From contig JAZJZK010000012.1 of assembly GCA_040389905.1 (NCBI GenBank), forward strand, positions 158,929 through 222,928: a stretch of DNA of 64,000 bases, read 5' to 3'. This stretch comes from Gemmatimonadota bacterium (GTDB lineage Bacteria; Gemmatimonadota; Gemmatimonadetes; Gemmatimonadales; Gemmatimonadaceae). The notes beneath the pieces were generated by a model. The model was not told the origin of the DNA. It did not search any database and was given only the letters and a program-made list of their open reading frames with translations. Positions 2,333 through 19,894 of this stretch are shown in pieces (the stretch's first letter is position 1; each line of letters opens with the position of its first letter). The position numbers and the translations under genes were made by a program.

Positions 2333-3979
2333 TTAAGCGCCCGTGAAGAGGTGGCCGACTAACCACGCAAGCGCTCGCCACACCCCATATCCGAGCCACC
2401 CCATCGCGAGAAGTACAAGCATGGCGACCGGCAAGGTTATGAGTAGCAGATTGACAGTGTACCTCCACGCGGAGCTGTGGACGGGCAGGCGACCAATCGG
2501 TAAGACACGTGCGGCAGCAGCAATCAGCTGCTGGGCGACGATCCTCTGGTTGGCGTTAGCCTTTTGGATGATATCGTGGGCGCGCGTCCACTCGGGAGCG
2601 AGTCCTTCTGCGTACCACTCGGCCGGAGGCAATCCGTTGCATACCACATCTGGCATAGCTTGCTTCACCATCAGGTCCGCGACGAAGTATCCCTGCGCGA
2701 TCAGCAGCTCGAAGACGTCGGCCTCCAAGGCATCGAGGTCGGTGCGGACACGCGACAGTTCCGAAACCAAGGAGGGCTCAAGGCCTCGATAGCGCGGGGG
2801 CACGTCGATCCCGCCGTCCTCGGGCGCGGCGAACATGTTCCGCGCCAGGTCAGCGCGATGAAGAAGCACCTGTGCACAGGCAGTGAACTGCACGCCGCGT
2901 GCGGGCGACCCAATTGCCGTCAGCGCCTCCGCTTCCGCCGCCGCGGCTGTCAGTGCTTCGCGCACATCTCCTGGCACACCGCTCGCCGCAGTTTTCCGGA
3001 GAGATCTCCCGAGCAATCGCAGACGTGTGGCCGCCTCAGTTGGATGCACGCCATGCGTCATTTCGTGCGCGAGTTGCCGCGTAGTGGCGCCAAGACGGTC
3101 ATGCACCACTTCGACAATTCGCAGAAGGCGTGCTGGGCCAAAGCCATCTGCATACTCACGCTCTGGAGGCGCTGCCCCAGAAATGACCACATGCGTGATC
3201 TTGTGACCGCGAAGTGCATTAACCCCTTCATTGTCGTAGAGACCTCCATCTACCAGTTGAAAGCGTACGGAGCCCGAGGGCGCGCCATATCGCTCGCGCC
3301 ATCGGCTGACTGTACCTGGTCGCTCAACTGGCGGGCGCTCCCACCGTCCCTCGCTAAGCAGGTCGCCCCGCATTCGCTCCCACCGTGTATCGAAAGCGTA
3401 GGAATCCGTCAGTCCCGGATAGGCGGCCGATGCGGCGACTGCATCGGCGACTCGGATTCCTCTAGTGCGGTCGGTCGCGCCAGCGAGGTAGTCACCGGCG
3501 CGATCCGCCATGAATCGCCAACCTTTCCCAGTGCGGAGGTTCGTAGCATTGATCGCGATCCACAAGGGCAGCTGGTCAAGCGTAGCTCCTTTGAACATCC
3601 GACGGTCGAGTTCCTCAGCTATCAATCCGGTCCGGGACGCTCGCGACGAAACCATTGATCGCAAGGTTCGCAGGGCTCGTCTTGGCGTTCCTAGGAGCGC
3701 GCGCGACCGCAGGTTGTCGAGCAGAAGCGACTCGATCTCGACGATAAGCTCATCGACCGCGTAGCTTCCCGGCGCACCGCCAGATTGTGCGCAGCGCAAT
3801 GCGTAGAGTGCACCCGTTATGGAACCACCTGATACCGTCGACAACGCCTCGATGCGCGCAAGCACGCCGAGTTCCTCGAGGCGCTTGAGCACGCCGAGAT
3901 GGTATGCGGCAGCGCGAAACCCGCCGCCCGACAGTGCGAGCCCGAGATGCACCCGCGCGGCCGGCGCGCTTAGAGCCAT
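2333..3979 (-). CDS. patatin-like phospholipase with C-terminal transmembrane segment
   Basis: LALSGGGFRA, STVSGGS nucleophile, AASAAYPG, DGGLYDN; hydrophobic C-terminus; start placed at ATG 3979 after the upstream stop. Confidence 0.9.
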   Translation of the reverse strand: MALSAPAARVHLGLALSGGGFRAAAYHLGVLKRLEELGVLARIEALSTVSGGSITGALYALRCAQSGGAPGSYAVDELIVEIESLLLDNLRSRALLGTPRRALRTLRSMVSSRASRTGLIAEELDRRMFKGATLDQLPLWIAINATNLRTGKGWRFMADRAGDYLAGATDRTRGIRVADAVAASAAYPGLTDSYAFDTRWERMRGDLLSEGRWERPPVERPGTVSRWRERYGAPSGSVRFQLVDGGLYDNEGVNALRGHKITHVVISGAAPPEREYADGFGPARLLRIVEVVHDRLGATTRQLAHEMTHGVHPTEAATRLRLLGRSLRKTAASGVPGDVREALTAAAAEAEALTAIGSPARGVQFTACAQVLLHRADLARNMFAAPEDGGIDVPPRYRGLEPSLVSELSRVRTDLDALEADVFELLIAQGYFVADLMVKQAMPDVVCNGLPPAEWYAEGLAPEWTRAHDIIQKANANQRIVAQQLIAAAARVLPIGRLPVHSSAWRYTVNLLLITLPVAMLVLLAMGWLGYGVWRALAWLVGHLFTGA

Positions 3980-4007
3980 CCCTGACGCTCCGAACTCACT
4001 CCAGTGC

Positions 4008-6317
4008 TCACCCCAGGTCAATAATTGCACCGTCCGGCCGCAAGATGGTCGGCTGTCGTCCGACCGGCATGCTCGCGACGAACGTCGAGATGCCACTGTC
4101 ACCGACGATCATCATTACGGCTGGCAAATCATCTGCATCAAGCGCCTCCGTGATCCAGACGAACACCTTCATATCGTCCGCCGAGGGAAGCGGCGCACAG
4201 CCCTCCGGGTGCGAGTGCCACTCACCGATATAGTGGAGCTGCCCTGCCGTTGCCTCGCGCACACGCTCCACCTCCGCGATCAATCCCGCAGCTCCACGAA
4301 TGTAAAGCGTGGGCCACTCCTGGCTATCGGGCGGCGAGGGGATTGTGTCCACCACATAGACAACTCGACGGGCTACGTCGACGGCACCCAGGAGTACACC
4401 GCCGGTCTCGCTCGGCAGCTTCGCTATGCGTAGTTCGCGAAGGCGCGCGAGCAGGCCCTCGTCCGTCACGATGCGCCAGTCTCCGACGGAGACGTCAAAT
4501 ACCGGATGCACCGCCACCTCGACAGACTGGACCCCAAGCGAGGACTCATTGAGTCGCCACACCCGGATCACGGCGCCAGTCTCGTCGACCACGCGTTCCA
4601 AAGCCTGTGCCCCGAGTGCCGCGAGAGCGGTGACGCGTGCATGGGGTAGCTGACTGCTCACGTCGCGGCAGGATCTACCGTAGCGCTGACGATTGACCGC
4701 CCCCCGTAACGTGCCGGCAAGCGCGGGCTCATGGCTGATCGCACGGTAGTACTGCATCTCAAGCGCATCCAGGCGTACAGCTCGATTGGTTGACTCCGCG
4801 AGAAGCACGAGGTCCGTGCCCATGGGATTGAGGAAGAGCGAGATCCGGCGCGGAGGCGCGGTCACGTCACGCGCGAGCGCACGGGCCACGGCAACCGACG
4901 CAGACATGTCGACAATAGAAACGGCGTTTGCGTACGCTTGCTCCAACGTCGCACGCTGTTCACCAGGTGCAAGCATATTGGTGACGATTGAACGGTGCAG
5001 GTCGCCGTCCGCTGCGGCGTCGCGCATTACACCTGAAGCAACGCCAATTGCCTTGGCGAACCCCACCGCACTATTGCCGAGCGCGTGACGCGCGACGTTG
5101 TGCGGCAGGAATACATCGCCGTCCACCACAGTCCAACGACCGAATGCGGTGCGCGCCACAAACCCGAGCACTTGCGATCCGAGAGCGCCGGCCCCGATGG
5201 CGACGAAAGGTCTGTCGTCAACGTCGCGCCGTCCGTTGAACCGCGCTCCGTCTTCCCGGCGATGTTGGAAATATGCATAGAGAGGCAAGACGCTGATGGA
5301 CGAGCCCCCATCGCCACCTCCGGGTCCGAGGATAGTTCCCAGTCCATGTGGGGTCGCCTCCCACAAGCCCAGTGACTTCCCTACATCCGCAATGGATTCG
5401 ACTGTGAGGAATGCCCATGGCTGCTCGATTTCTGGCTCCACACTGTCATCACGCCGCAACGGCACCATGACCACAATTGCGACTTGTGCGTCGAGGCCGA
5501 TGCCCTCCTGCTTCCATTCTCGTAGCACAGCGGCCAACTGAGCGCGCAGGTCATCTTCCGGGGTCAAGAGTTCATGCAGGTTCGCAAGCGTCCCGGGCGC
5601 CCGGCGAATAGCGCCGTGCGTACGCGGGGTCGTTCGAACACACGCGACCACGAATCGACGCTCGCCCTGCTGAACCTGGTCTGGTGGCACCGCGACGAGC
5701 ACCTGGAGGCCACCGATCTGGCCGCGCCGCTCCAGACCTAGCGCCGCATTCTCTTTCCGCAGGATGTTCGGCAGGATGATCCACCCAGCGCCGCCCAGCA
5801 TCAGCGGCTCGAGCGGCTGATCCGCCGCGTGGAGTTCGCCGCGTGAAGTCAACCGAAGCCACTCGCGCACCAGCGTAACGAACCGGCCCGGCGTCCAGGC
5901 GGCGCGGAGTTCGTCGAACGCCACGTCGAAAAGGCAGAGGCTGCGCGGGTACTCGTACTCTCGAAGGTTTACATGCGAAACGTCGCGCGGAAAGTCTTCG
6001 CGCAGGGCAAACGTTTCGGGCGGAGGCAGTTCACCTTCGTCCGCCTGCGGCGCCACAAACCACGCGCCAATTCGCTCCACAAGCCGGATGTCGTGTGCCG
6101 TGCGTTGCGGTGTCTCCACTTCGACCTCCATGATCACGAGATCGCCCGCAGAGCCGCGCCGACAATCGATCAGGCGGGCGAACGGTATCCCCGCGATGAG
6201 ACGCCGCGCTAAGGTGCGCGCGTCTTCGCGTCGGAGGCCATCGGGTTCGCATACGAAAGGCGCGAGCCCGAGCAGATCGAGTCGCGCAACTGCCGACGGC
6301 GCGATGGGGACGGTCAC
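4008..6317 (-). CDS. prokaryotic E2 (family A) - E1/ThiF - JAB fusion (Cap2+Cap3-like)
   Basis: E2 HVN...SLCLF; ThiF GAGALGS, DGD, HNVARH, RYGRSC; JAB ETGG...GEWHSHP...PSADD. Confidence 0.92.
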   Translation of the reverse strand: MTVPIAPSAVARLDLLGLAPFVCEPDGLRREDARTLARRLIAGIPFARLIDCRRGSAGDLVIMEVEVETPQRTAHDIRLVERIGAWFVAPQADEGELPPPETFALREDFPRDVSHVNLREYEYPRSLCLFDVAFDELRAAWTPGRFVTLVREWLRLTSRGELHAADQPLEPLMLGGAGWIILPNILRKENAALGLERRGQIGGLQVLVAVPPDQVQQGERRFVVACVRTTPRTHGAIRRAPGTLANLHELLTPEDDLRAQLAAVLREWKQEGIGLDAQVAIVVMVPLRRDDSVEPEIEQPWAFLTVESIADVGKSLGLWEATPHGLGTILGPGGGDGGSSISVLPLYAYFQHRREDGARFNGRRDVDDRPFVAIGAGALGSQVLGFVARTAFGRWTVVDGDVFLPHNVARHALGNSAVGFAKAIGVASGVMRDAAADGDLHRSIVTNMLAPGEQRATLEQAYANAVSIVDMSASVAVARALARDVTAPPRRISLFLNPMGTDLVLLAESTNRAVRLDALEMQYYRAISHEPALAGTLRGAVNRQRYGRSCRDVSSQLPHARVTALAALGAQALERVVDETGAVIRVWRLNESSLGVQSVEVAVHPVFDVSVGDWRIVTDEGLLARLRELRIAKLPSETGGVLLGAVDVARRVVYVVDTIPSPPDSQEWPTLYIRGAAGLIAEVERVREATAGQLHYIGEWHSHPEGCAPLPSADDMKVFVWITEALDADDLPAVMMIVGDSGISTFVASMPVGRQPTILRPDGAIIDLG

Positions 6318-7438
6318 CCTGCCCGCGGTGCCTGCGTACTGACGGCCGCGAAACCCACCGAACCCCCGGGCTTCTTGACCGTCGCGCCACGCCAGTCGAT
6401 CTCGATCGCTAGGGGCGCCGGCGCCGCGATCGAGGGGTGCTCCATCGTTACGACATACTCCCCCGACTTGTGCCGCGCGATGCGTTTGTAGTAATTGGCC
6501 GCCTGACGATGCGGCGGCTGGTCGTCGTCATCGTTGCTTGGAATCGGTTTGCTGGAGGAAACTAGCCGCGGCTTGATGTCGCCATATGTCTCGTAGAGAT
6601 CAGCAACATCCGAATCGGGCTTCGTCTCGGTGGTCCCCTTCTCCGGCCCGAGCGATTTGTAGCTGCTATGGTGCGGCAGCTTCACAATGTCCCATTTGAG
6701 CCGATCAATGCGGCCGTGGAACCTTGTGATCCGCACGAAGTCCGCGATGCACTCGTAGGTCGTGTCGCCCATGAGCATCGCGCGGGTCGTACCGCCACCG
6801 TCGCGAAAGGACGCTTGGAAGATAAGGCAGTTAGTGTTGCGGTCGTCAAACGTGCCGTCATCCTGCCGATGGGCGAATGGCGAGTGGACGAACATCTCCA
6901 GTCCTTTCGTGTTATTCGGCTCCCACCCAGGCACGTAGAGTCCAGCATCCGTGATAAGGTGCTGGCGCGAAGTGAGTGTGAGCCCCCTGCTGTTCAGCCA
7001 CGCTTCGAGCTTCGCAGGCCGAGAGAACACGCGAACGCGCTCGCCCTTCTCCAAGCGATAGCGCGCCTCGGCCCGGAGGATCTTCCCGTCTTCGCAAAGA
7101 TCCTCTTTCGTCTCCGTGATCGCCCACGCGGGCACCCAGAGCTCGTCGATTTTGATGCGGCCGTCACCCTGGTACTTGGAAGCATGTTCCAGCCAGAAGA
7201 ACGACGCAGCTCCGCATACGTGATCGTCGTCGAAGTGGGTGAAGGCAACGACGTCGAAGCGATCACGCCCCGCTGCCTTCAGGTCGGCGCGCAGTTCATC
7301 AGGCAATTTCGCGCGCTTGTCCGTCGGGTCTGTCGCGCACCGCATGTCCGCGTAGTCGAAGAGAAGCTTCTGCCCGCCGGGAAGGTCAACGCGGTATGTA
7401 TCCGCGTTGCCTAGAGGATACAGTGTGATCGTCGACAT
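6314..7438 (-). CDS. metallo-beta-lactamase-fold hydrolase with C-terminal Gly tail
   Basis: LGNADT, THFDDDHVCG, LMGDT, KLPHHSS; ends STQAPRAG; GGAGG RBS; 4-bp overlap with the E2-E1-JAB gene. Confidence 0.9.
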   Translation of the reverse strand: MSTITLYPLGNADTYRVDLPGGQKLLFDYADMRCATDPTDKRAKLPDELRADLKAAGRDRFDVVAFTHFDDDHVCGAASFFWLEHASKYQGDGRIKIDELWVPAWAITETKEDLCEDGKILRAEARYRLEKGERVRVFSRPAKLEAWLNSRGLTLTSRQHLITDAGLYVPGWEPNNTKGLEMFVHSPFAHRQDDGTFDDRNTNCLIFQASFRDGGGTTRAMLMGDTTYECIADFVRITRFHGRIDRLKWDIVKLPHHSSYKSLGPEKGTTETKPDSDVADLYETYGDIKPRLVSSSKPIPSNDDDDQPPHRQAANYYKRIARHKSGEYVVTMEHPSIAAPAPLAIEIDWRGATVKKPGGSVGFAAVSTQAPRAG

Positions 7439-7570
7439 TTGTGCACCTCCCTCTTAGTGAGGGAGCGCCGGGAGGAACGTCGGCGCCCCTATGACTTAAG
7501 TCTCGCTCGTTTCGAGAGTTGCCCCGCGACGGCCCCAAATAGAGGCGGCCGTTTGCACTTGGGCATGTCC

Positions 7571-8026
7571 TTACGTGCCTGACAGAAGTAGCGGCAGGCC
7601 CATTGGCGTCATGCCGTCGAGAACAAGGTGAGACGCGTAACCGGCCATTGACCCAAGAATCGCCGCTACCGCAAGCCGCCACAGACGCGCATTGAGCATC
7701 TCATTGCGCCACGCATCAGAATCCTTCGCGAGCGTCGCGGCACGCCGCTCGCACTGCGCTGCCTGGTCAAGACAATGGGCGTGGTGGCGAGCACGGGCGA
7801 GTGCACCGATGCCTGCGGCTGCCGCCAAGCTGTGTGCCGTGCTTCGATGACGTGGATTCAAAGCCGGCTCGATCAGGTCGGGGAGCAGTGCACTACCCGA
7901 TGCGCTCAGCGTGCATGCCAGGACATGTGCGAAGCGGTCCTTCTCTTCAAAGAGGGTCATCGTCGCGAGGCCAGTCACGAGGCCTGCGATGGCTCCAGCA
8001 GCAAGGTGAGTTTTCTTGTTGGGCAT
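7571..8026 (-). CDS. YdjM-like metal-dependent membrane hydrolase
   Basis: TH, LPDLIEP, HRSTAHS and SHLVLD...TPMGLP motifs with hydrophobic helices. Confidence 0.8.
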   Translation of the reverse strand: MPNKKTHLAAGAIAGLVTGLATMTLFEEKDRFAHVLACTLSASGSALLPDLIEPALNPRHRSTAHSLAAAAGIGALARARHHAHCLDQAAQCERRAATLAKDSDAWRNEMLNARLWRLAVAAILGSMAGYASHLVLDGMTPMGLPLLLSGT

Positions 8027-8032
8027 AAGGAC

Positions 8033-8263
8033 TCAGCGACCCTGTGTGGCGACCACTAACCGCCAACGAATGGCGGAGCGGTTCGAGTGCTGATGATGGT
8101 TCTGGGGTGGTAGGGGGTTACCCTTGTTCGAGGCGACTTCGTGGGCGCACCCCTCGCATCGATAGATCCCCGAGTTGTCGGTGTTGGCCCCTGGTGTTTG
8201 AACGACATCGAACGCCGACGCCGTAGATTGCGACAAGTATCCAGAGTTCTTGTAGAGCGCCAT
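8033..8263 (-). CDS. small YjzC-like zinc-finger protein
   Basis: PG...SGIYRCEGC...PLPPQNHHQH...WRL; GGAGAGAGG RBS before ATG 8263. Confidence 0.75.
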   Translation of the reverse strand: MALYKNSGYLSQSTASAFDVVQTPGANTDNSGIYRCEGCAHEVASNKGNPLPPQNHHQHSNRSAIRWRLVVATQGR

Positions 8264-8338
8264 CCTCTCCTCCGTGAGTGGGCGCATCACCGAGATGGGC
8301 CCGTGCACGAAGGCTAAGTAGAGAGGGGCGGCAGGTCG

Positions 8339-8378
8339 TGGACGGAAGTTGGACGGAAATGGACCGCCGTTTCCGTCA
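8339..8378. promoter_or_regulatory. tandem TGGAC(GGAA) repeats, candidate response-regulator operator
   Basis: TGGAC at 8339, 8350 and 8360 (10-11 bp spacing) plus inverted TTTCCGTC at 8370, in the gap upstream of the 8263 operon. Confidence 0.45.
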
Positions 8379-9227
8379 AATCAATGCGACTGTCGACGCC
8401 AGGACGCCAGAAAGGCGTGCAATTTCGGCGTGGCTGCGGCCCGCAAGCCAAGTCGTATTGATCTTCCCGATCGCAATTGCATCAGATAGAGCGTAGGTGC
8501 CGCCATCGTTCACGATGACAGTCGTCGGATCTTCGAAAGCAGCAAGTAGCACCTTTCGGAGTCGGTCAACCCGCTTATAGGCGATCTGCGCGTTGTTTCC
8601 GAAGTCGCTTAGTGCTACTGGCCGTCCATTCGCTCGCCCGAGCAGGAGATGCAGCAGCACACACAGCTCCGAATCCGTCAATTGGAAGTCGCGGCCGCCG
8701 AGTGTCAAGACGGTCCGCCCTTTTATTGACCGACCGGTGATCTCGAGAATGACCCCGACGGTCGTAGAGACGGTCGCGTCACCACACGAACCATGCTGCT
8801 CACGACCGCTCTTTCGGAGTGCCTCGCCCACTCTGCGAACGACATCCGCCTCGCTGTATGGCTTTTGGATGATATCGTCGGCCTCAAGCTTCATCAGCTC
8901 CACCGCTTCCTGCACTTCATTCGCGTGCCCACTGACAACGATTATCGGGAGCCAGACGGTTTGCATTCGGGGACTGCCGAAGCGTTTGCGAATATCGGCC
9001 AGCAACGAGATTCCGACATTCGCTCGACCTTTGATGTGCTGCGCGCTGCTGGGAATGCTGAGGTCGAGAAGTACCACGCAAGGCGTATGCGACTCCAAAA
9101 ACACGAGCGCTGCGTCGCGCGTCGCTGCGATGGTCGGATCACAGTCCATCGAACGGAGAATATCCGCGAGGTCCTCAGCGGTCGGCGGATGATCCTCAAC
9201 GATCAGTGCACAGTGAGGAGTGCTCAT
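8376..9227 (-). CDS. response regulator (REC + winged-helix-like output)
   Basis: LIVEDH, LLDLSIP, VVSGH, IQKP; C-terminal LTDSELCVLLHL...VDRLRKVL...GGTYAL. Confidence 0.85.
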   Translation of the reverse strand: MSTPHCALIVEDHPPTAEDLADILRSMDCDPTIAATRDAALVFLESHTPCVVLLDLSIPSSAQHIKGRANVGISLLADIRKRFGSPRMQTVWLPIIVVSGHANEVQEAVELMKLEADDIIQKPYSEADVVRRVGEALRKSGREQHGSCGDATVSTTVGVILEITGRSIKGRTVLTLGGRDFQLTDSELCVLLHLLLGRANGRPVALSDFGNNAQIAYKRVDRLRKVLLAAFEDPTTVIVNDGGTYALSDAIAIGKINTTWLAGRSHAEIARLSGVLASTVALI

Positions 9228-10336
9228 CGAGTACCGCTGCGGAATTGTGGGACCGCGATGGCAATCAAGGTGCCGTCGCCCACCTTGCTCTCGATGTTAA
9301 GCGTCCCCTCATGCTCAGACTCGACGATCTTGATTGCGAGGGGAAGACCGACACCTGTACCCTGAGGCTTGCTCGAGCTGAACAGCGTGCGCGCATCAGC
9401 AAGCGCTTCGGGTATCATTCCGCAACCGCAATCGCGAACGCGAATAAGGATGGCGCCTTCGCATACTTCCGCGTCGATCTCGATCGGCCGACGGTCAATG
9501 AGTCCGCTGTACGCCTCAACAGCGTTGTGAAGCACATTCGATAACGCTTGGACAAATCGTGTTCGCGATACTACAAACTCAAGGGACGCGTCGACACGAT
9601 TCCTAATCTCCACCCGCATTGTCTCCGACACTCCGTCGGTCGTTCGAATCGCTTCGTCCAGGAGCCCGCGTACTCCTTCGCTCGAATACTCGAGATCAGG
9701 TAACGCTGCGTACTCGCGCATCGCATTGAGCACTGCATTCACTTGCTCAACGTCCTGTTCGACCCGACGGACCCTTTCAACCACGCGCGCGTCTGCCTCA
9801 GCGGCGAGAAGCTTGCGAAGTTCCTCGACTTCACGTTCCAGCGGCGTCAAGTACTTGATCACCTCATGGTACAGTTCGCGCGCGAACGTGTTCGTCATAT
9901 CGCTCGCCGCGCGATAGACCGCAGCGCGACCCTGCGCCCCGAAGCGTATGTAGATCGCCTCCAAGATGCCCTCAAGTCGCCGCTCGTGCTCACGACCGAG
10001 CAGGCCCGCCGCGCGCCAATCGCGCCGCCGTAAACTCGACGACTGCGCCGCCTGCTGTACCCGCGCATTCGCATCCGCTGCAAGGCGTGCAAGGAGCGCA
10101 TCCAAGCCAGCATGTCGACATTCTCCGGCCACGAGTGCGACCGCGCGCCGCACCTCCCATTTCTCGTGGGTGGCGAGGATCACAAGACTATCGACTATCG
10201 CTTGAGAATCGGCCGATCCGACGGGCTCGCGCTGTAGCCACACGCTGGCGGCGCGAATTCCCTGTTCGGTTTCCATCCAGGACACGGATCGAAGCCTCGC
10301 CAGAACCTCCTCGGCGCTTCCACGGTCAGTGACCAT
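9224..10336 (-). CDS. cytoplasmic histidine kinase with N-terminal HEAT-like repeats
   Basis: HEKWEVRRAVA and DANARVQQAA repeats; H-box ELYHEV; NVLHNAVEA, DCGCGM, LFSSSK, GTGVGL; no TM segment. Confidence 0.88.
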   Translation of the reverse strand: MVTDRGSAEEVLARLRSVSWMETEQGIRAASVWLQREPVGSADSQAIVDSLVILATHEKWEVRRAVALVAGECRHAGLDALLARLAADANARVQQAAQSSSLRRRDWRAAGLLGREHERRLEGILEAIYIRFGAQGRAAVYRAASDMTNTFARELYHEVIKYLTPLEREVEELRKLLAAEADARVVERVRRVEQDVEQVNAVLNAMREYAALPDLEYSSEGVRGLLDEAIRTTDGVSETMRVEIRNRVDASLEFVVSRTRFVQALSNVLHNAVEAYSGLIDRRPIEIDAEVCEGAILIRVRDCGCGMIPEALADARTLFSSSKPQGTGVGLPLAIKIVESEHEGTLNIESKVGDGTLIAIAVPQFRSGTR

Positions 10337-12200
10337 ACCTCTTCATGCGTTCGAGAAACGCCGAAGCACCGCCTTCGAGGATGCGCTCTACAGCTTCCTT
10401 GCATTCATCGACTGTACCGACCTCGGCCACTCTTGCTTGCTGTCCGTCCGAGTCGAACACAAAGATGCGATCAGCGTCACCAAGAACGGGAATGTTCGGG
10501 TTGTGCGTCACGAACACCACTTGGCGCGTCAATTTCACGGCTTTTAGTGCGCCAACCACGGTGTCGAACACGAACGCATTGTCGAGATTGTCCTCTGGTT
10601 GGTCAATCAGCAGAGGGCGATCGCTCTGCCTGAGAAGGATTGGAAGGACCACTGTACAGCGCTGACCCGTCGAGAGGTGGGACGATTCCTTGTACGTCTC
10701 ACCGTCGCGCAGTTCAATACACGGAACGTCCCCGAGGTCAATGGTTTGAAGATCGTACGCGGAGCCGCTTTCTCGGAGCGTGTCGATAATGCGTCGAGCA
10801 CGTTCGGCGTCAATGCCCGCGCGCTCGGCCAGTTCCTCCGTTGCTTCGGCAAACACGAGCGCTGCGAGTTCGGTGGGCAGCAGAGCAGTCACCAGTCTGT
10901 CAGCTGCTAACCCCTGTTTCATGCGCTGCCCTTTCAACTGTTCGGCAACGAATGCGCGATAGGCATCGAGGTTGGCCGTTTGTCGGATGGACACGCGTAG
11001 CGAAGGAACGTCGGCCGACAGTTGTGCCGCAATCGCCCTGCGACGATTGTACCGTTCGTCACGCGCCTCTGACAAACGGGCGAGCAGTTCGGAGCGAGCA
11101 TTAATCGCAGCATCTCGCACCGCTGTTCGGCCATTTAGCTCGCGCACGGCGGCCTGTGCCGTGGCCAACGCCGCCTGCAGTACGCCGCGTTCTCGTGCTT
11201 GCTCTGCATGCTCCTGCGATTCCGCAAGGATGGCAGCGTACTCTGCCTCTTGTGCCACATGCTGATTCGTCAGGAGTTGACGCTGTTCGTCGATTGTCCG
11301 TTCCAGCTGGGCAGCCGCAGTCGCCGCAGTATCGGCCGCACCACGCAACGCTTCCGCGAACATCTCAATATTTCGCTGAAAGGCGGCTACCAATGCTGCA
11401 TTCTCACCGACGAGCAGGTCATCATCAAAGGCAGCATTCGCCGTGTCGCGAAATGTTGTCTCTAGAGCGGTGATATCTCGTGTCGCCCGCTGAACAGCTA
11501 CGAGCCCAACTTCCGCTATACGCTCCTCGCGAATCCGCCTCGCCTTTGCTGTATGCGCGCGTGTCAGTCGCTCGCCGTCCGGACCATCCGGCTGCGTCAG
11601 ACCCCGAAGACGCTCTTCAATCCCCGCCACTTCCGCGGCCCGCGCACGTAATCCATAAATCTCGTCGTCCAAATGCAGCAATTGGGCGGCGGAAGCCTCC
11701 AGAGCTCGTCCGAGTTCTTCGAGTTCGCGAGCTAGTCGACGGTTTGCCGATTCATCGAAGCGGTCAAGCAATTGAAGCTGCGCTTCCGCGTTCGACGCGA
11801 TCTCTTCGATTTCATTTTGGCTAAACACGTCTGCGCTGAAGATTTCGTCGCGGTCGAGAGAGATAGGCACGATTTCGCCGAGCGCGCTCCGGACGGTAAT
11901 GCTATCGCCCTTTCCGCGTTCTGCGGAGTAGGAGATTCCTGCTTTGGTGTTGACGTCGATCGTCAGGCGACCGGAAGCCAAATTGCCATCTACGAGAGAC
12001 TCTAGGGCGCGCCGACGTTGCGGGTGGATCTTCTGATCAGGTAGTAGGCCCAGCGCGAACCTAAGAAACTCCAGGGCAGTCGTCTTGCCGGTGCCCCTTC
12101 CGCCGATAAAGCAGTTGAGACCGTCAGACAGATGTAGGTCCGCACCAGCGAGGAAGCCGCCGGCCACGCGCAAGCGGGTAATTCTATGATGTGAGGTCAT
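10326..12200 (-). CDS. SMC/RecN-like coiled-coil ABC ATPase (TrlF/Ppl-ATPase-like)
   Basis: GGRGTGKT, FSQNEIE, long coiled coil, LSTGQ, LLIDQPEDNLD, VTHN, ILEGG. Confidence 0.88.
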   Translation of the reverse strand: MTSHHRITRLRVAGGFLAGADLHLSDGLNCFIGGRGTGKTTALEFLRFALGLLPDQKIHPQRRRALESLVDGNLASGRLTIDVNTKAGISYSAERGKGDSITVRSALGEIVPISLDRDEIFSADVFSQNEIEEIASNAEAQLQLLDRFDESANRRLARELEELGRALEASAAQLLHLDDEIYGLRARAAEVAGIEERLRGLTQPDGPDGERLTRAHTAKARRIREERIAEVGLVAVQRATRDITALETTFRDTANAAFDDDLLVGENAALVAAFQRNIEMFAEALRGAADTAATAAAQLERTIDEQRQLLTNQHVAQEAEYAAILAESQEHAEQARERGVLQAALATAQAAVRELNGRTAVRDAAINARSELLARLSEARDERYNRRRAIAAQLSADVPSLRVSIRQTANLDAYRAFVAEQLKGQRMKQGLAADRLVTALLPTELAALVFAEATEELAERAGIDAERARRIIDTLRESGSAYDLQTIDLGDVPCIELRDGETYKESSHLSTGQRCTVVLPILLRQSDRPLLIDQPEDNLDNAFVFDTVVGALKAVKLTRQVVFVTHNPNIPVLGDADRIFVFDSDGQQARVAEVGTVDECKEAVERILEGGASAFLERMKRYGH

Positions 12201-13369: not shown

Positions 13370-13585
13370 CTAGCACTCATGCGCCGCCGGAGCCTGCACT
13401 ACCGCCTTCCCGGCGGCCCTCTTTGCCCAGTAGCCCCTGCCGGGCAACGGGATGTTCAGCTTTCGGCAGTTCTTTGCCAAAGCGACGTCGGATATGCCGT
13501 ATCGCTGGGCGAGTATTTGCATCGGCTCCGACCAGACTTGCTCATACAATTCCTCTCGACTGACTCTTCCGGCAGTGGCGTGCAT
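13370..13585 (-). pseudogene. truncated island-associated HTH-like protein (N-terminal fragment)
   Basis: REELYEQVWSEPM...YGISDVALAKNCRKLNIPLPGRGYWAK is an N-terminus normally followed by a much longer protein; here it stops at about 71 aa. Confidence 0.55.
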
Positions 13586-13752: not shown

Positions 13753-16296
13753 CTACCACCCGCCCTCGACTTCCACGACTGGCACCTGAAGAGCTGTTGC
13801 CACTGGCGTCCAGATGTCCACGTCCGCCGTATCCGTTTCGATGCCGATCACAAGTGCGTATCGTGCGCCGAACCGGCTTCGATCGCGCTTGGGCTGATCT
13901 TTCCACCATCCGGACACTGGATAAATGCCGATAACGCTCCGGTCGGCAAGTTCCTCCGCCGTCCCACTCCAGACGTCCGAGTGCAGCGACCCGCGGTTGC
14001 GAGCTTCCGGTCCGAGGCACCATTCGTCGGAATCACTGTCGACGGTGGGACGCTTCTCCTCCTCGGCAAGCGCTCGCTGATTGAGTCGCTTGGTGAAGTC
14101 GTCCTCGCTTTCGTTTGGAGAAATCACCGCATATCGAAGGCCATGCGATGCATACCGGTGGCGGCGCCGCCATCCGCGCTGGCCTGGATTCGGTTCGATG
14201 AAGTATGAGAGCGTCACTCGAAGACGAACGGCCGCGCCGCCCTGAGCCCCGACCTCACGCAATGCGTCTACTGGCCAAGGCAGACGGTGCATGTGCATTT
14301 CACGCATCTTACCGGCCACGAATGGGTGAATGACGCCCTCCGCGATCAAGGTAAGTGCGTCGTTCGCACTTCGCAGTGTGCGATCGAGACTGGGTACTCC
14401 GAAGCCATAGCGACGTACGAGCCGAGACCTTGCTCTCTTCGATTCACTGCCGTCGAAGCCTTCCTGCATTGCGGGCGTCCAGCGTGCACCATGAACTATG
14501 AGCGCCCGGATCGTTTCAGGCCAGAGCGCTGGGTACTCGGCTCGAGTGATGGTCGCTATTCTCGCCACCTGAACAGCAGCTGCACTCGTCGCGAAGGACA
14601 AACCGAGCGGTGTTGCCGGATCGGCGTGGGTCGACAGGAGACAAAGATCAGGTGTCGGGAAATCGATGTTGGTGCCGTCGGTCGCGACGTTTCCGCCTTC
14701 GAAGACGACGTCAGGTTTGATCGGCCAACCCTCCGCGAATGCAACTGACGTCGTGCTCCACGGAGAGAGATCGCCGGGTCTGGCCACAGGTGACCACGCG
14801 CTCCACGTTGGCTCAGTAATGAGCGCCTTTTCGGTGTATGCCCCGACGGCCAAGGCATTCCACGCTTGCGCTGGATCGTGCACGGGTTCGACGTCACTCC
14901 GCGCCAGGTGATCGGCGTCCAGATTCCTGACGTTCCCCGCGCTTATGACGAAGAGCCGTTCGGCGTTTTGCTCGGCATCGCCGACGTAGCGAAGCCCGTG
15001 ATCGGACGGATCGAAGCTGCGTCCCACGGCCATGGCATCAATCGCCGCAGACCAGGATGTTGGCTGGCCACGATCGCGCTGGTCTGCCGCCGTGATCGCG
15101 AGAGAGAAGACGCGTGGGCGCTCGGGCGATGTGATCTCCGGACGCGCTACAGCCTGCGCCGTGATTGCACCGTACAATTCCGGCACGTTCGCGCCGTGAG
15201 GTGGTAGGATCTTGACTGACTCCAGCCGATGCCTCACGAGAACCGGATCTCTGCTGGCGAATATGGGCGCGAGATCGCCGAAAACAGCCAAGCCGGCCAT
15301 CTCCGTGCCGTGGCCTTTACTACCTTCTCCGCCGCCGTCGTCATGCGACCCCCATCCGACGTTCACGGCGGTGGCGTCCTCTGATGAGAGAAACTGCTCG
15401 AGAAGGGGATGCCCGCGATTTACCCCGGTATCGAGCAGGCAGATTGCGGGCGCGTCTGCCGGCGGAAAGACAGCGCGGGCAAGTAAGTCCCCAATCCATT
15501 CAACTTGCTCGGTCGCAGGTGTGCCTATGAACGGCGCGGCCGACTGTTTTGCTCGTCGCAGCTCGGCAAGATCATGCAGAACATCGAGGGAACCTGCCAG
15601 CTCACTCGACGTCGCGTGCACGAGGATCACCAAGCGGTCATCAAAGGCAAGGCGGCTATCGGCGATTTGAATGCTCGTCGCATCGGCGAACGAAAGAAAC
15701 CGTTCGAGTTCGCGCCCCTCGTCACGGCGCAGCCAGACTTCCCACCAGATCGACTCGCCATCCGCCGGGAAGCTGGTTGCCTCTTCCGTCCACAGAGCCC
15801 TCAGCGTTGCCCGTCGGAGCGCAGCGATGCGGTCCACCATCTCCTTGTGTTTTGGCTCGCCCTTCTGTGTGACCTTCGTTGCGTATTCCTCGAATCGAGA
15901 AAAGAAATGCTTCAGCGCCCCGTCAGGAACAAAAACGGTGGCATACTGAACCGCCGGTTCACTCTCTGCGGTTCGGACCCTTTGCACCGTGAGCAGTTCG
16001 ATTCCGAGACGTTTGTTCTCGAGTGATTCCAGTTTCAGCTCCTCGCCTGAGAGACTTTCGAACTGGATGTACAACCCAGGCACGGCCCCCTGGACATTCA
16101 CTCCCGCAACAGTTCGCTCTGCTTCGGCGTCACCCACTGCTCCACCCAGAGCAGCCCCCAATGCCTCCGCGTGCGCGACGCGGTCCGCTGGGCGGTCAAA
16201 CTGCCGAGCCTTCACCGTGCGCGGATGTGGGCTGAACGGCTGCGCCTCGGGAGGCGCGCTCACGACCAGATGCTTGCGATTCCTCGGAGCCGGCAT
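13753..16296 (-). CDS. ietS: S8 family serine peptidase (IetS-like)
   Basis: LLDTGVN, HGTEMAG, ISAGN, IKPDVVFEGGN, ATSAAA, WPETIRALIVH. Confidence 0.88.
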   Translation of the reverse strand: MPAPRNRKHLVVSAPPEAQPFSPHPRTVKARQFDRPADRVAHAEALGAALGGAVGDAEAERTVAGVNVQGAVPGLYIQFESLSGEELKLESLENKRLGIELLTVQRVRTAESEPAVQYATVFVPDGALKHFFSRFEEYATKVTQKGEPKHKEMVDRIAALRRATLRALWTEEATSFPADGESIWWEVWLRRDEGRELERFLSFADATSIQIADSRLAFDDRLVILVHATSSELAGSLDVLHDLAELRRAKQSAAPFIGTPATEQVEWIGDLLARAVFPPADAPAICLLDTGVNRGHPLLEQFLSSEDATAVNVGWGSHDDGGGEGSKGHGTEMAGLAVFGDLAPIFASRDPVLVRHRLESVKILPPHGANVPELYGAITAQAVARPEITSPERPRVFSLAITAADQRDRGQPTSWSAAIDAMAVGRSFDPSDHGLRYVGDAEQNAERLFVISAGNVRNLDADHLARSDVEPVHDPAQAWNALAVGAYTEKALITEPTWSAWSPVARPGDLSPWSTTSVAFAEGWPIKPDVVFEGGNVATDGTNIDFPTPDLCLLSTHADPATPLGLSFATSAAAVQVARIATITRAEYPALWPETIRALIVHGARWTPAMQEGFDGSESKRARSRLVRRYGFGVPSLDRTLRSANDALTLIAEGVIHPFVAGKMREMHMHRLPWPVDALREVGAQGGAAVRLRVTLSYFIEPNPGQRGWRRRHRYASHGLRYAVISPNESEDDFTKRLNQRALAEEEKRPTVDSDSDEWCLGPEARNRGSLHSDVWSGTAEELADRSVIGIYPVSGWWKDQPKRDRSRFGARYALVIGIETDTADVDIWTPVATALQVPVVEVEGGW

Positions 16297-16308
16297 GGTC
16301 CTCGGGAC

Positions 16309-17298
16309 TTACTTCGAGTGACTCGCGCGCCGATCCTCGAGAGCCGCGACCAATTCCCCAGTTCGCACCTCGCGACGGTGAGCGAGGATGGCATGCTTTG
16401 CCGCTTGCTGCGCTGCCCTTGCCAGCTCCGCGTGGCTTAGTCCTTCAACAACCGCGGATACCTTCGCCCAGCCAACCTTCGACGTGTCGAGCAGCGCCAG
16501 CCTGCCGCGTAGAACCTCCACCGCCTCCTCAGTCGTCGGAAGTCCATACTTGATAACCGAATCGAATCGTCTCAGCAGGGCACGGTCAAGCAGGTCCGGA
16601 TGGTTCGTAGCAGCAACGACGAGACTGTCAGACTCATCCAGCTCCATGAACTGGAGGAACGAGTTCAACACTCGCCGAATCTCGCCAACTTCATTCTTCG
16701 CGCTGCGCTCCGCGCCAAGCGCGTCGAACTCGTCGAACAGGTAGACGGCGCGCGACTCACGGATCGTGTCGAAAATCAAACGAAGTTTGGCAGCCGTCTC
16801 GCCAAGATATTTCGTGATCAACCCGTCGAGCTGAATGGCGAAGAGAGGAAGGCCGAGCTCGCCCGCCAAGACCGCCGCCGTCATCGTCTTTCCGGTCCCC
16901 GGCGGACCAATCAGCAACAGCTTCCTCAGAGGCGAGAATCCATGCTCCCGAATCTGTGTTCGTCCGCGCTGTTCAACGAGGACGTGTTCGAGCCGGGCAC
17001 GCACGTCCTCTCGAAGCGTCATGTCAGTAAGGCGCGCTTGGGGAAAGCTCGCGGAAAGCAGCCCGACGAGTTCGCCGCGAGGCTGAACGATCGGGACCGC
17101 GCGAGACTTCTGTCCGGCGCGCGCCGTATCGCGCCGTTGCTTCGCCTCGTCTACGAGGTCGCGAAGCTCCTGCGCGAATTTCGTCTGGCCCAGCCGGGCA
17201 GCGCGAGCGGCGACCTGCATGGCGATGGCGTAGAAACGCTCGTCATCGCCTTCTGCGTGTGTGCGGACGAGTGCCTTGAACTGATCTGCTTTGGCCAT
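16309..17298 (-). CDS. ietA: AAA ATPase (IetA-like)
   Basis: GPPGTGKT, YLFDEFDA, AATNH, LDRALLRRFD; directly upstream of the S8 peptidase; start placed at MAKADQ. Confidence 0.88.
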   Translation of the reverse strand: MAKADQFKALVRTHAEGDDERFYAIAMQVAARAARLGQTKFAQELRDLVDEAKQRRDTARAGQKSRAVPIVQPRGELVGLLSASFPQARLTDMTLREDVRARLEHVLVEQRGRTQIREHGFSPLRKLLLIGPPGTGKTMTAAVLAGELGLPLFAIQLDGLITKYLGETAAKLRLIFDTIRESRAVYLFDEFDALGAERSAKNEVGEIRRVLNSFLQFMELDESDSLVVAATNHPDLLDRALLRRFDSVIKYGLPTTEEAVEVLRGRLALLDTSKVGWAKVSAVVEGLSHAELARAAQQAAKHAILAHRREVRTGELVAALEDRRASHSK

Positions 17299-17440
17299 GT
17301 CAGACGCATGATCAAGGGTTGTGCGCCGATTCTCTGCGCGCTCGTGGCGCCTCCGTTTCAAGCTGAATCTACAGCGCGCGACTCGGCACTGTCGAGTCTC
17401 GTAGATTGCGGCGACGACTGGCTCCACGGAAGGGATCGAA

Positions 17441-17509
17441 AATAGACTCGCCCGTAGCTGTTTCCGGCCCGTAGAGCATAGACGTGACTGTAGCGGGGCT
17501 GTGCTCGCC
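17441..17509. repeat. about 70-bp diverged repeat, copy 1 (copy 2 at 22190-22258)
   Basis: AATAG-ACTCGCCCGTAGCTGT...AGCATAG...GGGCTGTGCTCGCC shared by both copies. Confidence 0.75.
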
Positions 17510-17739
17510 GTCACGAAGGGCGCCGCAGGGACAATCTGCTCGGCGTGCTGCTGCCGCCTCTTCGGGGCTCCGTCGACGGAGACGAACGACGCGAGAGTCG
17601 TAATCCGGCGTGCTGCTGCCGCCGAGCGTTTGACCATTACCGACGAGCAGGCCGTCGATTGGAAAGTTGAGAAAGCTCGCTCCGGCCGACCCACGATAGC
17701 CGCTACTCCAACTACTGCATCGCGTATCTTGATAAGACC

Positions 17740-19686
17740 ATGGGATCCCTCGACGACCTCCCGCAGCGCGGTGTAACGCACGAGACGGCGGAAGCCGCTG
17801 AACGCGCGTTTGCGAACGCAGTCGCGGACGCCCTGCTATTTGTCCATCAAGGCTGCGACCGGCACGACTACGGGAGCGATGCGGTCATAGAAGCGGTACG
17901 CGAAGGAGCCGTCACGAATCTTCGCATTCACGCGCAGCTCAAAGGCACCACGGCGACGGCTAACAGCGACGGCTCGGTCAGTGTCTCGGTAGCGCGAACG
18001 ACTCTGAACTATCTCCTCAATCAGCCCTCGTCGCTTTTCGTCTGCTACCACGTGCCCAGCGGCCGCTTGCTCGCGCGATACGCCGAGGACGTGTACGCGG
18101 AGTATGCACATCGCGACGAGGATTGGCTCGCCCAGGACTCAATTACCGTTCGCTTCCACGCGTCGTTCGATCGAGAGTTTCAACATCTGCTGCATCGCCG
18201 TCTACTGGCAGCAGGAGAAGGACACCGGGAGACACGGCTCGACTGGATCGCAAGTCCACCAGGATACGCGGCGGAGCTCGTGCGGCAGACGCCGCGTATC
18301 ATCGACGTCCCAGCTGATCCCGATCGAGCGCAACTGATCTTGGCCGCGCTGTACGAAGCAGGCGAAGACGATGTGATTTCTGCTTCCTTCGCGGCTTTCG
18401 CTGCCGTTTTGGATGGGGTGGAGGGCGCCTTGGATGCCGCCTACATGGCGGAAATTAACCGCGGCCTGAATCACGCTGCCTTCGACAAGCAACGTGTGCG
18501 TCGAGGTATCGAGGTGCTACGGACTGCCGCCACATCGCGGCGAATCGAACCACTATCTGCAGGATACTGTGAAGCGAACGCGAGGCTGGCGCTAGGCGAG
18601 CATGCACTTGCCATCGAGGGATACAGCGGCATTCTCCCACAACTTGAACAGCTCAACGCGCATATCGCGGCGATGTGTGCCAAGAATCTTGGCAGCGCGT
18701 ACGAAGCGCTCGGTGATGTCTCCTCGGCACATCAGTTCTATGCACGAGCGGTGGAACTCGATTCAGAGCTCGGTGAAGCACATTTCGCGCTAGCGATGTG
18801 TGCACGGCGCGATGGCGACATCCAGATGGCCTTGTCGCATTTGGATAGAGTGGCGCCCTCCCCGCGCTCCGCTATCCGTATGCCGAGTGTCAGCGGCTGG
18901 CGTATCGCACTCCTATTTCAAACCGGAGATTACAACGCGGCCTTCCGCGACATCAGCACTCTCCGTGACCAAGCGCGTTCAGCGCGGTGGATATGGCCCT
19001 GGTGCGCTAGGCAAGTGGCAATTTACGGCCGAGCAACCGTTGATTCGACGAAGCTCGCACTCCGCTTTTGGAACGGGTATCTGGAGGAGCATCCCGACGT
19101 TGCTCCGGCTAAGCGCGAACGGTTGCTGTGCCTCGCGCGACTCGACCGCCATAGTGTTGCGACTCGCGTTTCGTTTGACGCGTTCGTTGCCGAGGTGTCG
19201 GAGGTGGCTGCCGCTGGTGACTCCCAGGCGGCTTTGCTGTGGGATGTTGCCGGACACTGGGCCCAGCGTGAAGGAAGGTGGGACGACGCGGAGGCAGCGT
19301 TCAGGCGCGCTCACGAGTTGGATAGTTCGCGATTCGCGTACTGTCTTGCTACCGCGCTCAACTTCCTAGATCGCTATGATGAAGCATTGCGTGTTCTCAA
19401 CGCGTTGCCCTTGGTCGACATGGATGCGCAGGCCTGGTTTCAGCTCGCTGTCGCTCGCGACGGGATTGGCAACTTAGAGGGCGCCATAGCAGCCTACCGT
19501 TTAGCAATCGGACTTGAGCCGGCGTATGCTCTCGCCTGGTTCAATTTGGGCGGGGTCCTTTTCAACGCTGGAGACTTGGTAAGCGCTCGCGAGATCTGGA
19601 CCGACGCATTGAATCGGTTCCCGGAGCATGAACTGGCGGCCACGATCCGCAATGAGTTCGCGTTTGTTGTCGGTGACGGTCACTAA
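17740..19686 (+). CDS. DUF4365 (PD-(D/E)XK-like) domain + TPR protein
   Basis: HDYGSDAVIE...AQLKGT N-terminus; multiple TPRs (AKNLGSAYEALG, AWFNLGGVL). Confidence 0.8.
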   Translation: MGSLDDLPQRGVTHETAEAAERAFANAVADALLFVHQGCDRHDYGSDAVIEAVREGAVTNLRIHAQLKGTTATANSDGSVSVSVARTTLNYLLNQPSSLFVCYHVPSGRLLARYAEDVYAEYAHRDEDWLAQDSITVRFHASFDREFQHLLHRRLLAAGEGHRETRLDWIASPPGYAAELVRQTPRIIDVPADPDRAQLILAALYEAGEDDVISASFAAFAAVLDGVEGALDAAYMAEINRGLNHAAFDKQRVRRGIEVLRTAATSRRIEPLSAGYCEANARLALGEHALAIEGYSGILPQLEQLNAHIAAMCAKNLGSAYEALGDVSSAHQFYARAVELDSELGEAHFALAMCARRDGDIQMALSHLDRVAPSPRSAIRMPSVSGWRIALLFQTGDYNAAFRDISTLRDQARSARWIWPWCARQVAIYGRATVDSTKLALRFWNGYLEEHPDVAPAKRERLLCLARLDRHSVATRVSFDAFVAEVSEVAAAGDSQAALLWDVAGHWAQREGRWDDAEAAFRRAHELDSSRFAYCLATALNFLDRYDEALRVLNALPLVDMDAQAWFQLAVARDGIGNLEGAIAAYRLAIGLEPAYALAWFNLGGVLFNAGDLVSAREIWTDALNRFPEHELAATIRNEFAFVVGDGH

Positions 19687-19894
19687 CCGCACAGTGGATA
19701 CGGAGCCTTCTACGATGAACAAGTGAGGTAGTTCCCGCCCAAGCTGCGAGGATGCTGACGAGGAAGACGGCGAGAGCGGAGCGCATGGATGTTGAAGGGG
19801 AGTGATGTCCCTACGACCATGCGATTGCGGAATGGGTTGAGACTCGGCCCGGAGCGCAAATGTGTACCTACAGGTCCGCAGCCAGGTTTCGGGG

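Follow-up and report, generated by a model that had tools for sequence, protein, structure and literature searches.

How cell-killing immune operons stay silent until they are needed is an open question, and the portable regulators so far described work through sensing of single-stranded DNA and de-repression. CapW/BrxR, CapH with CapP and CapK with CapS are such regulators and are placed upstream of swappable immune operons; the cargo given for them in PMC13373217 includes CBASS, Thoeris, Bil, Bub and MBL operons, the regulators sometimes adjoin restriction-modification (R-M) systems, and CapS is described there as a repressor released by a kinase that single-stranded DNA activates. Here, a stretch of 64,000 nucleotides of a Gemmatimonadota bacterium (contig JAZJZK010000012.1, positions 158,929 to 222,928; hereafter the window) was analysed for a row of eight genes which starts with an ATP-binding cassette (ABC) ATPase, a histidine kinase and a response regulator (the trio). 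These three genes, together with a conserved DNA box behind them, likely act as a phosphorelay cassette that activates whichever anti-phage operon lies behind it, here 6A-MBL with a patatin; the probability that we give to this reading is roughly 0.68. By analogy, the cassette would fill the slot held elsewhere by CapW, CapH/P and CapK/S. The new part is the trio itself, which consists of a PHP-less Ppl/TrlF-like ABC ATPase, a HEAT histidine kinase and an OmpR-type regulator. A literature search produced no description of this trio, although supplements (e.g. that of PMC13373217) might list its architecture. A 2020 classification of ABC ATPases might do so as well.

The ATPase gene (10326..12200, minus strand, 624 amino acids) overlaps the kinase gene (9224..10336, minus) by 11 bp, and the kinase gene overlaps the regulator gene (8376..9227, minus) by 4 bp. 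Relatives were collected with a 74-sequence kinase alignment, which yielded 34 loci from genomes and 130 from metagenomes; with the best 80 of the latter and the window, 115 loci were compared. Linkage to the regulator was scored where at least 300 bp were present downstream and linkage to the ATPase where at least 500 bp were present upstream, with the window counted. The regulator was found after the kinase in 104/104 loci and the ATPase ahead of it in 100/103 loci. In two of the three misses (L023 and L032) the ATPase was there, displaced by insertions, while the third (L114) had 548 bp of sequence only. The 11-bp overlap was kept in 55/63 and the 4-bp overlap in 47/61 related loci; with the recurrence of the box this shows that the arrangement goes beyond chance. 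The nearest kinase relatives were from Gemmatimonadota with 62-80% kinase identity, and the catalytic motifs of the trio were all intact in the alignments of the relatives and the window. The sequence-only reading had taken the three genes for one signalling unit, and this linkage supports it. Judged from the same counts and the box described below, ATPase, kinase, regulator and box appear to be a portable cassette in which trio and box travel together.

The ATPase, which is the predicted sensor, is a soluble coiled-coil protein without a PHP domain. Its homology extends across the whole ATPase region of TrlF/Ppl and it shares their family signature, with 301.6 bits against NF045780 (cut-off 350; profile positions 291-944 covered) and 108.4 bits against the Ppl model NF042955 (cut-off 1000). 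Membership of Ppl/TrlF was rejected on the missing PHP domain, the two scores below cut-off and a match that starts only at profile position 291; in addition, the window ATPase differs from that family in being coupled to a HEAT kinase, which followed longer forms of the ATPase in 0/22 cases on viral contigs. PARIS AriA and Lamassu LmuB were also rejected, with weak matches (E about 1e-7) and a partner that was the kinase in the 100/103 loci above. Walker A (33-40), Q-loop (Q128), signature (509-513), Walker B (533) and H-loop (565-567) were invariant across 57 relatives. Motif inspection showed no CxxC zinc hook in the ATPase, and a PDB sequence search with the ATPase alignment found no relative.

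The kinase is composed of HEAT-like helices (8-109), a DHp domain with H157 and a catalytic domain (217-363), with Pfam matches to HATPase_c and, weakly, HEAT_2. No membrane helix was found in its hydropathy profile, which indicates a cytoplasmic protein. Its AlphaFold2 (AF2) model had a pLDDT of 85 and matched ZraS and HK853 in Foldseek, and H157 and the HEAT motifs were invariant in 74 kinase sequences. The regulator carries a receiver and an OmpR/PhoB-type winged helix (AF2 pLDDT 87.5); receiver residues E11, D12, D55, S99 and K122 were invariant in 50 sequences, and its best Foldseek matches covered both domains of VanR, MtrA, RpaA and KdpE. The pair therefore has the features of an OmpR/PhoB two-component system, i.e. 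a HisKA-type kinase with the conserved histidine, the receiver aspartate, serine and lysine, and a winged helix.

Contact between ATPase and kinase was examined by complex modelling. The ATPase-kinase model scored 0.72 while the best of three controls scored 0.00; the score mark used was reached by 116/157 solved pairs and 2/215 mismatched pairs, a calibration that is roughly applicable since custom alignments were used. The runs shared at least 91% of contacts with a partner pLDDT of at least 75. In the modelled interface the invariant HEAT motifs of the kinase (59-61, 89-92) lie against ATPase residues 370-409, and conservation of the kinase interface was 0.84 compared to 0.67 for its domain. 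Recall of a known complex by the model is less likely because a sequence search showed no relative of the ATPase among solved structures. Overall, the model supports binding of the ATPase to the kinase, in line with the earlier proposal that the ATPase signals through a cytoplasmic kinase.

The genes behind the regulator (the cargo) were compared after dereplication at 95% kinase DNA identity into 94 clusters, among which 66 loci, the window being one of them, extended far enough downstream. Up to six (genomes) or four (metagenomes) co-oriented genes were scanned per locus and the cargo was labelled by hand. Defence-type cargo of at least eight kinds was present in 51/66 loci, a position upstream of diverse immune operons that also characterises the Cap regulators. 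It comprised CBASS (13), CBASS effector genes (2), TIR/Thoeris-like genes (12), Ubl/E1 genes which we take to be Bil/Bub-like (10), 6A-MBL (7), OLD (3), cyclase (2), PNP (1) and a vWA-PP2C-kinase set that is presumably TerY-P-like (1). Operons other than 6A-MBL were headed by the trio in 59/66 loci.

CBASS, TIR, Ubl or 6A-MBL domains were found among the two nearest genes downstream in 16/26 genome loci and upstream in 2/26, L007 being excluded from this comparison for insufficient downstream sequence; about five of the 26 upstream sides carry R-M- or BREX-like genes. This one-sidedness, behind a conserved promoter, argues against the alternative that the trio, as a Ppl-derived sensor, is a defence or stress module in its own right which works alone or on distant genes and whose neighbours reflect clustering in a defence island. 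The window does lie in such an island, with type I R-M to the left and an IetAS-like pair to the right, the genes scanned behind the regulator at seven places of the wider family in a phylum sample (only some of them) included no recognisable defence operon, and the output of a plasmid sister trio is of the kinase type with no DNA-binding domain. Nevertheless, besides the one-sided cargo, the strict box pattern occurred in the genome at the window site and one other place, so that no regulon was evident, and the trio has no recognisable toxic domain. We consider a stand-alone module quite improbable.

An intergenic gap of 112 bp (8264..8375, minus) separates the regulator gene from the zinc-ribbon gene, and a conserved box of about 43 bp was identified at 8340..8382 (minus). 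The box consists of an inverted repeat (GGAAAC, 8 bases, GTTTCC; 8374-8355 in the window) flanked by repeats phased at 11 bp. The repeats noticed in the gap from the letters are real, as an 8-mer occurs twice (8358-8351 and 8347-8340) at an 11-bp period inside the inverted-repeat structure. A pattern search found the box after the regulator in 77/88 loci, and 5 of the 11 misses were picked up with a matrix. Across 55 dereplicated loci, single positions of the box were conserved to as much as 2 bits, and the box core was outside the regulator reading frame in 33/55. At L002 an insertion parts the regulator from the box, and the box remains with the CBASS genes. The box is predicted to be the binding site of the regulator.

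A TAnnnT motif started 59 or 60 bases from the first G of the box in 47/55 dereplicated loci, compared to at most 2/55 at any other offset (30 to 89) and a mean of 1.3 (maximum 7) in 2000 shuffles. In the window this position corresponds to the predicted sigma-70 -10 hexamer of the cargo promoter at 8311..8316 (minus). The end of the box falls shortly before the -35 position, with the -10 and start site left uncovered, and the best -35 match was three of six or less in 33/47 loci. Activator-dependent promoters usually have a binding site next to a weak -35, as seen here, and OmpR-type proteins mostly activate when phosphorylated. The suggestion in the sequence-only reading that the gap may serve as a regulator-dependent promoter is supported by the box and by the fixed-distance -10 with its weak -35. 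A generic promoter and terminator scan showed nothing above shuffles and also missed the 8316 site, and no second box scoring above 18, as for autoregulation, was found upstream of the ATPase in 55 loci.

The same cassette could also be run with the opposite logic, in which the promoter is held off by the regulator until the signal lifts repression, as for CapW, CapH and CapS. De-repression is the mode of all three described regulators of the slot (PMC13373217). The box is also palindromic, unlike a plain OmpR tandem site, and the -35 matches four or five of six positions in 14/47 loci. However, a repressor would not be expected from a box that ends upstream of a mostly weak -35 with -10 and start free, nor from the general habit of phosphorylated OmpR-type proteins, and repression is regarded as improbable. 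A further alternative takes the box for a recombination or insertion site for cargo swapping, or for an RNA hairpin, rather than an operator; conserved DNA does give way to variable DNA exactly at the box, the middle of which is often self-complementary. Against this, the cassette has no recombinase gene, a -10 hexamer at fixed distance is unexpected for a recombination site, no U-tract was present and the window copy is unable to form the longer stem, which makes this explanation very unlikely.

Several observations weigh against activation by a portable cassette. Recognised defence cargo was absent from 15/66 loci (12 unassigned, 2 with Ku/LigD and 1 with HNH only), and the counts overstate independence because the loci are related and were dereplicated only at 95% or 85% identity. 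Six loci had a partial or degenerate box only, and the window box is itself divergent, scoring below 10 in the genome scan with a matrix built without the window copy. Box divergence correlated with that of the recognition helix (rho 0.59) and of the receiver (rho 0.77), so that covariation is inseparable from overall divergence. In addition, a second promoter could lie in the 132-bp gap that precedes the MBL gene, and conservation of the ATPase interface (0.76) was no higher than that of the whole protein (0.79).

If the cassette activates its cargo, the ATPase would dock on the HEAT domain of the kinase at the base of the ATPase coiled coil, as in the complex model, and a trigger would change the state of the ATPase. 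H157 would then be autophosphorylated and the phosphate passed to D55, after which the regulator would bind the box beside the weak -35 and recruit RNA polymerase. In the window, the E2-E1 would join the MBL enzyme to a target via its terminal glycine, JAB would reverse this, and MBL and patatin would damage the infected cell. Aberrant DNA from infection or damage is tentatively put forward as the trigger, at somewhat less than even odds; it is favoured because DNA damage is what the other regulators of the slot sense, Ku/LigD is present at two loci, and the phage-borne trios lie ahead of excision and early genes. A phage protein, as for PARIS AriA, is a plausible trigger as well, at lower odds.

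Behind the gap lie the genes of the zinc-ribbon-like 'protein L' (8033..8263, 76 amino acids), YdjM (7571..8026), MBL (6314..7438), E2-E1-JAB (4008..6317, overlapping the MBL gene by 4 bp) and patatin (2333..3976), all on the minus strand. In the open reading frame (ORF) list of the window 8/8 ORFs were co-oriented from 12200 down to 2333, and the arrangement first reported for them, with 11-bp and 4-bp overlaps and a 112-bp gap with repeats, was confirmed on the letters in full. The longest patatin ORF opens at 4102, within the E2-E1-JAB gene; translation probably starts at the ATG at 3976. Domains of the eight proteins were confirmed by Pfam/NCBIfam with the exception of the zinc-ribbon protein, which had no family match.

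The MBL protein scored 380.6 bits with NF058524 (cut-off 220) and the adjoining E2-E1-JAB (cap2_3) fusion 595.8 bits with NF058523 (cut-off 320). The fusion has Prok-E2_A, ThiF and Prok-JAB domains with C128, C550 and the JAB HxH motif present. By these matches the downstream core is the already named anti-phage system 6A-MBL, with which it shares an MBL gene followed by an E2-E1-JAB fusion. Operon type 6a was described in 2006 (PMC1779556); for its activity against phages, PMC13276650 and PMC11601596 cite van den Berg 2024. CBASS/Pycsar type II was rejected, as no CD-NTase or cyclase match was found among the eight proteins. The window MBL protein ends in a free glycine, and the same four-residue motif with a short tail was found in 5/6 relatives. 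This is consistent with conjugation of the MBL enzyme by the E2-E1, since MBL pathways are stated in PMC11601596 to conjugate their signalling enzyme through a fused E2-E1; the MBL enzyme is thus the predicted conjugated moiety.

Compared to 6A-MBL, the window operon adds 'protein L', YdjM and patatin and is placed behind the trio. The patatin (PF01734, 72.8 bits) has the glycine-rich loop, serine and DGG motifs and a C-terminal hydrophobic segment (membrane helix). A patatin was found near 6A-MBL in 6/8 other copies in a sample of 400 genomes of the phylum, 2/4 plasmids inspected and 3/7 trio-linked copies, and this phospholipase is likely the effector. YdjM, a membrane metal-dependent hydrolase (PF04307, 38.4 bits), recurs as first or accessory gene ahead of CBASS, OLD, cyclase and 6A-MBL cargo. 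The zinc-ribbon-like protein has CxxC and HHxH motifs and 961 homologues; its Atlas clusters are named 'protein L', with a weak YjzC lead, and it followed the regulator in only 1/34 genome loci (L021). 'Protein L' is an accessory, and all three are common add-ons to 6A-MBL.

The sequence-only reading had staked its case on the trio and MBL/E2-E1-JAB occurring together elsewhere, and six other loci carry both. Its further claim, of a single new system made up of all eight genes, was not supported, as MBL/E2-E1-JAB is the named 6A-MBL, found mostly without the trio, and the trio mostly heads other operons. A dedicated eight-gene system could draw on the 7/66 loci with trio and 6A-MBL, of which three have patatin and two YdjM; with no other examined locus carrying all eight genes and each half mostly without the other, it is hardly credible. 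The trio was present in 0/8 of the other 6A-MBL copies in the phylum sample (about 5 kb upstream examined), and a plasmid search (E 1e-20) showed no HEAT kinase on any plasmid, the 21 with the MBL included. On a Hymenobacter plasmid a WYL gene occupies the same slot upstream of 6A-MBL.

At other loci the cargo showed recurring arrangements. YdjM with DUF3892 leads OLD, cyclase or CBASS cargo in L005, L016, L069, L074, L082 and L114, while in L018, L043, L087, L090, L098, L102 and L110 the cargo opens with a 70-aa protein and DUF3892 and continues with unannotated proteins and an E1 or PNP gene. The first gene after the box in L058, L064, L076 and L097 encodes about 380 amino acids with a C-terminal Cap12-type TIR and is apparently the sole cargo. 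Two loci (L027:12110-14930 and L029:12082-14109) have trio and box ahead of two XRE helix-turn-helix genes with Ku (plus LigD); this cargo is of the DNA-repair kind and hints at a DNA-break signal. Given the strong enrichment of defence genes in the cargo slot, the 12 unassigned cargos are candidate new systems. Unannotated first cargo genes behind the box (L020:12248, L083:5684, L086:10026, L103:5317 and L035:10195) are candidate new defence genes.

A search of viral contigs with the kinase alignment found no relative; the ATPase alignment did find a wider family there. On these contigs (L121-L159) the short ATPase was followed by this kinase in 35/36 cases and then by a regulator in 31/33 evaluable cases, compared to none of the longer ATPase forms. 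Behind the regulator, excisionase-like, sigma-factor, Sak4, exonuclease or primase/methylase families were present in 21/29 contigs (78/83 called proteins scanned), and these genes were often preceded by phased direct repeats of other sequence than the box. Annotated phages gave only six partial ATPase matches. Phage copies ahead of early genes suggest that host and phage both employ one sensor in their conflict. An ATPase tree of 72 sequences placed L121 in one branch with the defence-heading sequences (support 1.0), as expected because those sequences were chosen by kinase similarity.

A sister trio on plasmids has a PHP-less ATPase (31% identity), a shorter kinase whose alignment begins at the DHp, and a third gene in which the receiver is fused to a TCAD9/APH kinase-like domain in the 5/5 regions inspected (L116-L120; NZ_CP054974.1, NZ_CP088263.1, NZ_CP015743.1, NZ_CP049322.1 and NZ_CP096564.1). 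No NCBIfam model passes for it, and it is a candidate stand-alone Detocs-like defence system. Tentatively, and with rather less confidence than for the cassette, a Ppl-type immune ATPase may have lost its enzyme domain and become a direct sensor inside the cell for a histidine kinase, giving a phosphorelay that leads from an invader or DNA damage to transcription. One branch would activate swappable anti-phage operons, phage-borne branches would fire early and excision genes, and a plasmid branch would be wired to a kinase-type effector. The module is rare: it was not found in 400 other genomes of its own phylum or in 400 genomes of the phylum of G401, and was found in 7/300 genomes of the phylum of G402, where all eight places carry all three genes.

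The surrounding DNA forms a defence island. A type I R-M operon (L212:11575-19331), its S and R genes separated by an inserted addiction-module antidote gene, lies immediately to the left of the window, and positions 91-2079 of the window contain a convergent DUF5131 and TcmP pair with PADLOC candidate matches PDC-M30 and PDC-M41. Further to the right are an AAA ATPase and S8 peptidase (13753-17781, minus), IetAS-like and under NCBIfam cut-offs, and at 17740-21883 a DUF4365-TPR gene and a HEPN-like (Ymh) plus beta-propeller gene. A short truncated frame at 13370-13570 (minus) presumably resembles an integrative-element protein family.

If the proposed reading is true, the cassette would be a mechanistically different class of portable regulator, an ATPase-gated two-component activator, and it is directly testable because residues are named, an interface is predicted, and operator and promoter are given. 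Ambrosia (10.1101/2025.09.30.679545) shares a sensor kinase and a receiver-winged-helix (REC-wHTH) regulator that is proposed to induce defence genes on infection, but differs in its fixed methyltransferase/HNH cargo and XRE gene, and the five genes given for it include no ABC ATPase; XRE, methyltransferase and HNH genes were absent from the eight of the window. Detocs (10.1101/2023.01.24.525353) likewise uses two-component phosphotransfer in phage defence, with a toxic enzyme fused to the receiver as output and a stand-alone buffer receiver, whereas the window regulator has a DNA-binding winged-helix output and no buffer receiver is present. The cargo list of the trio is nearly that of CapK with CapS (PMC13373217). 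Unlike that pair, the trio has a His-Asp phosphorelay, a separate ABC ATPase and a promoter layout suggesting activation. Overall, although the trio has a HisKA-type fold and a receiver instead of the WYL, peptidase and STAS domains of CapW, CapH with CapP and CapK with CapS, and so falls outside the domain definitions of that group, the cassette works like them.

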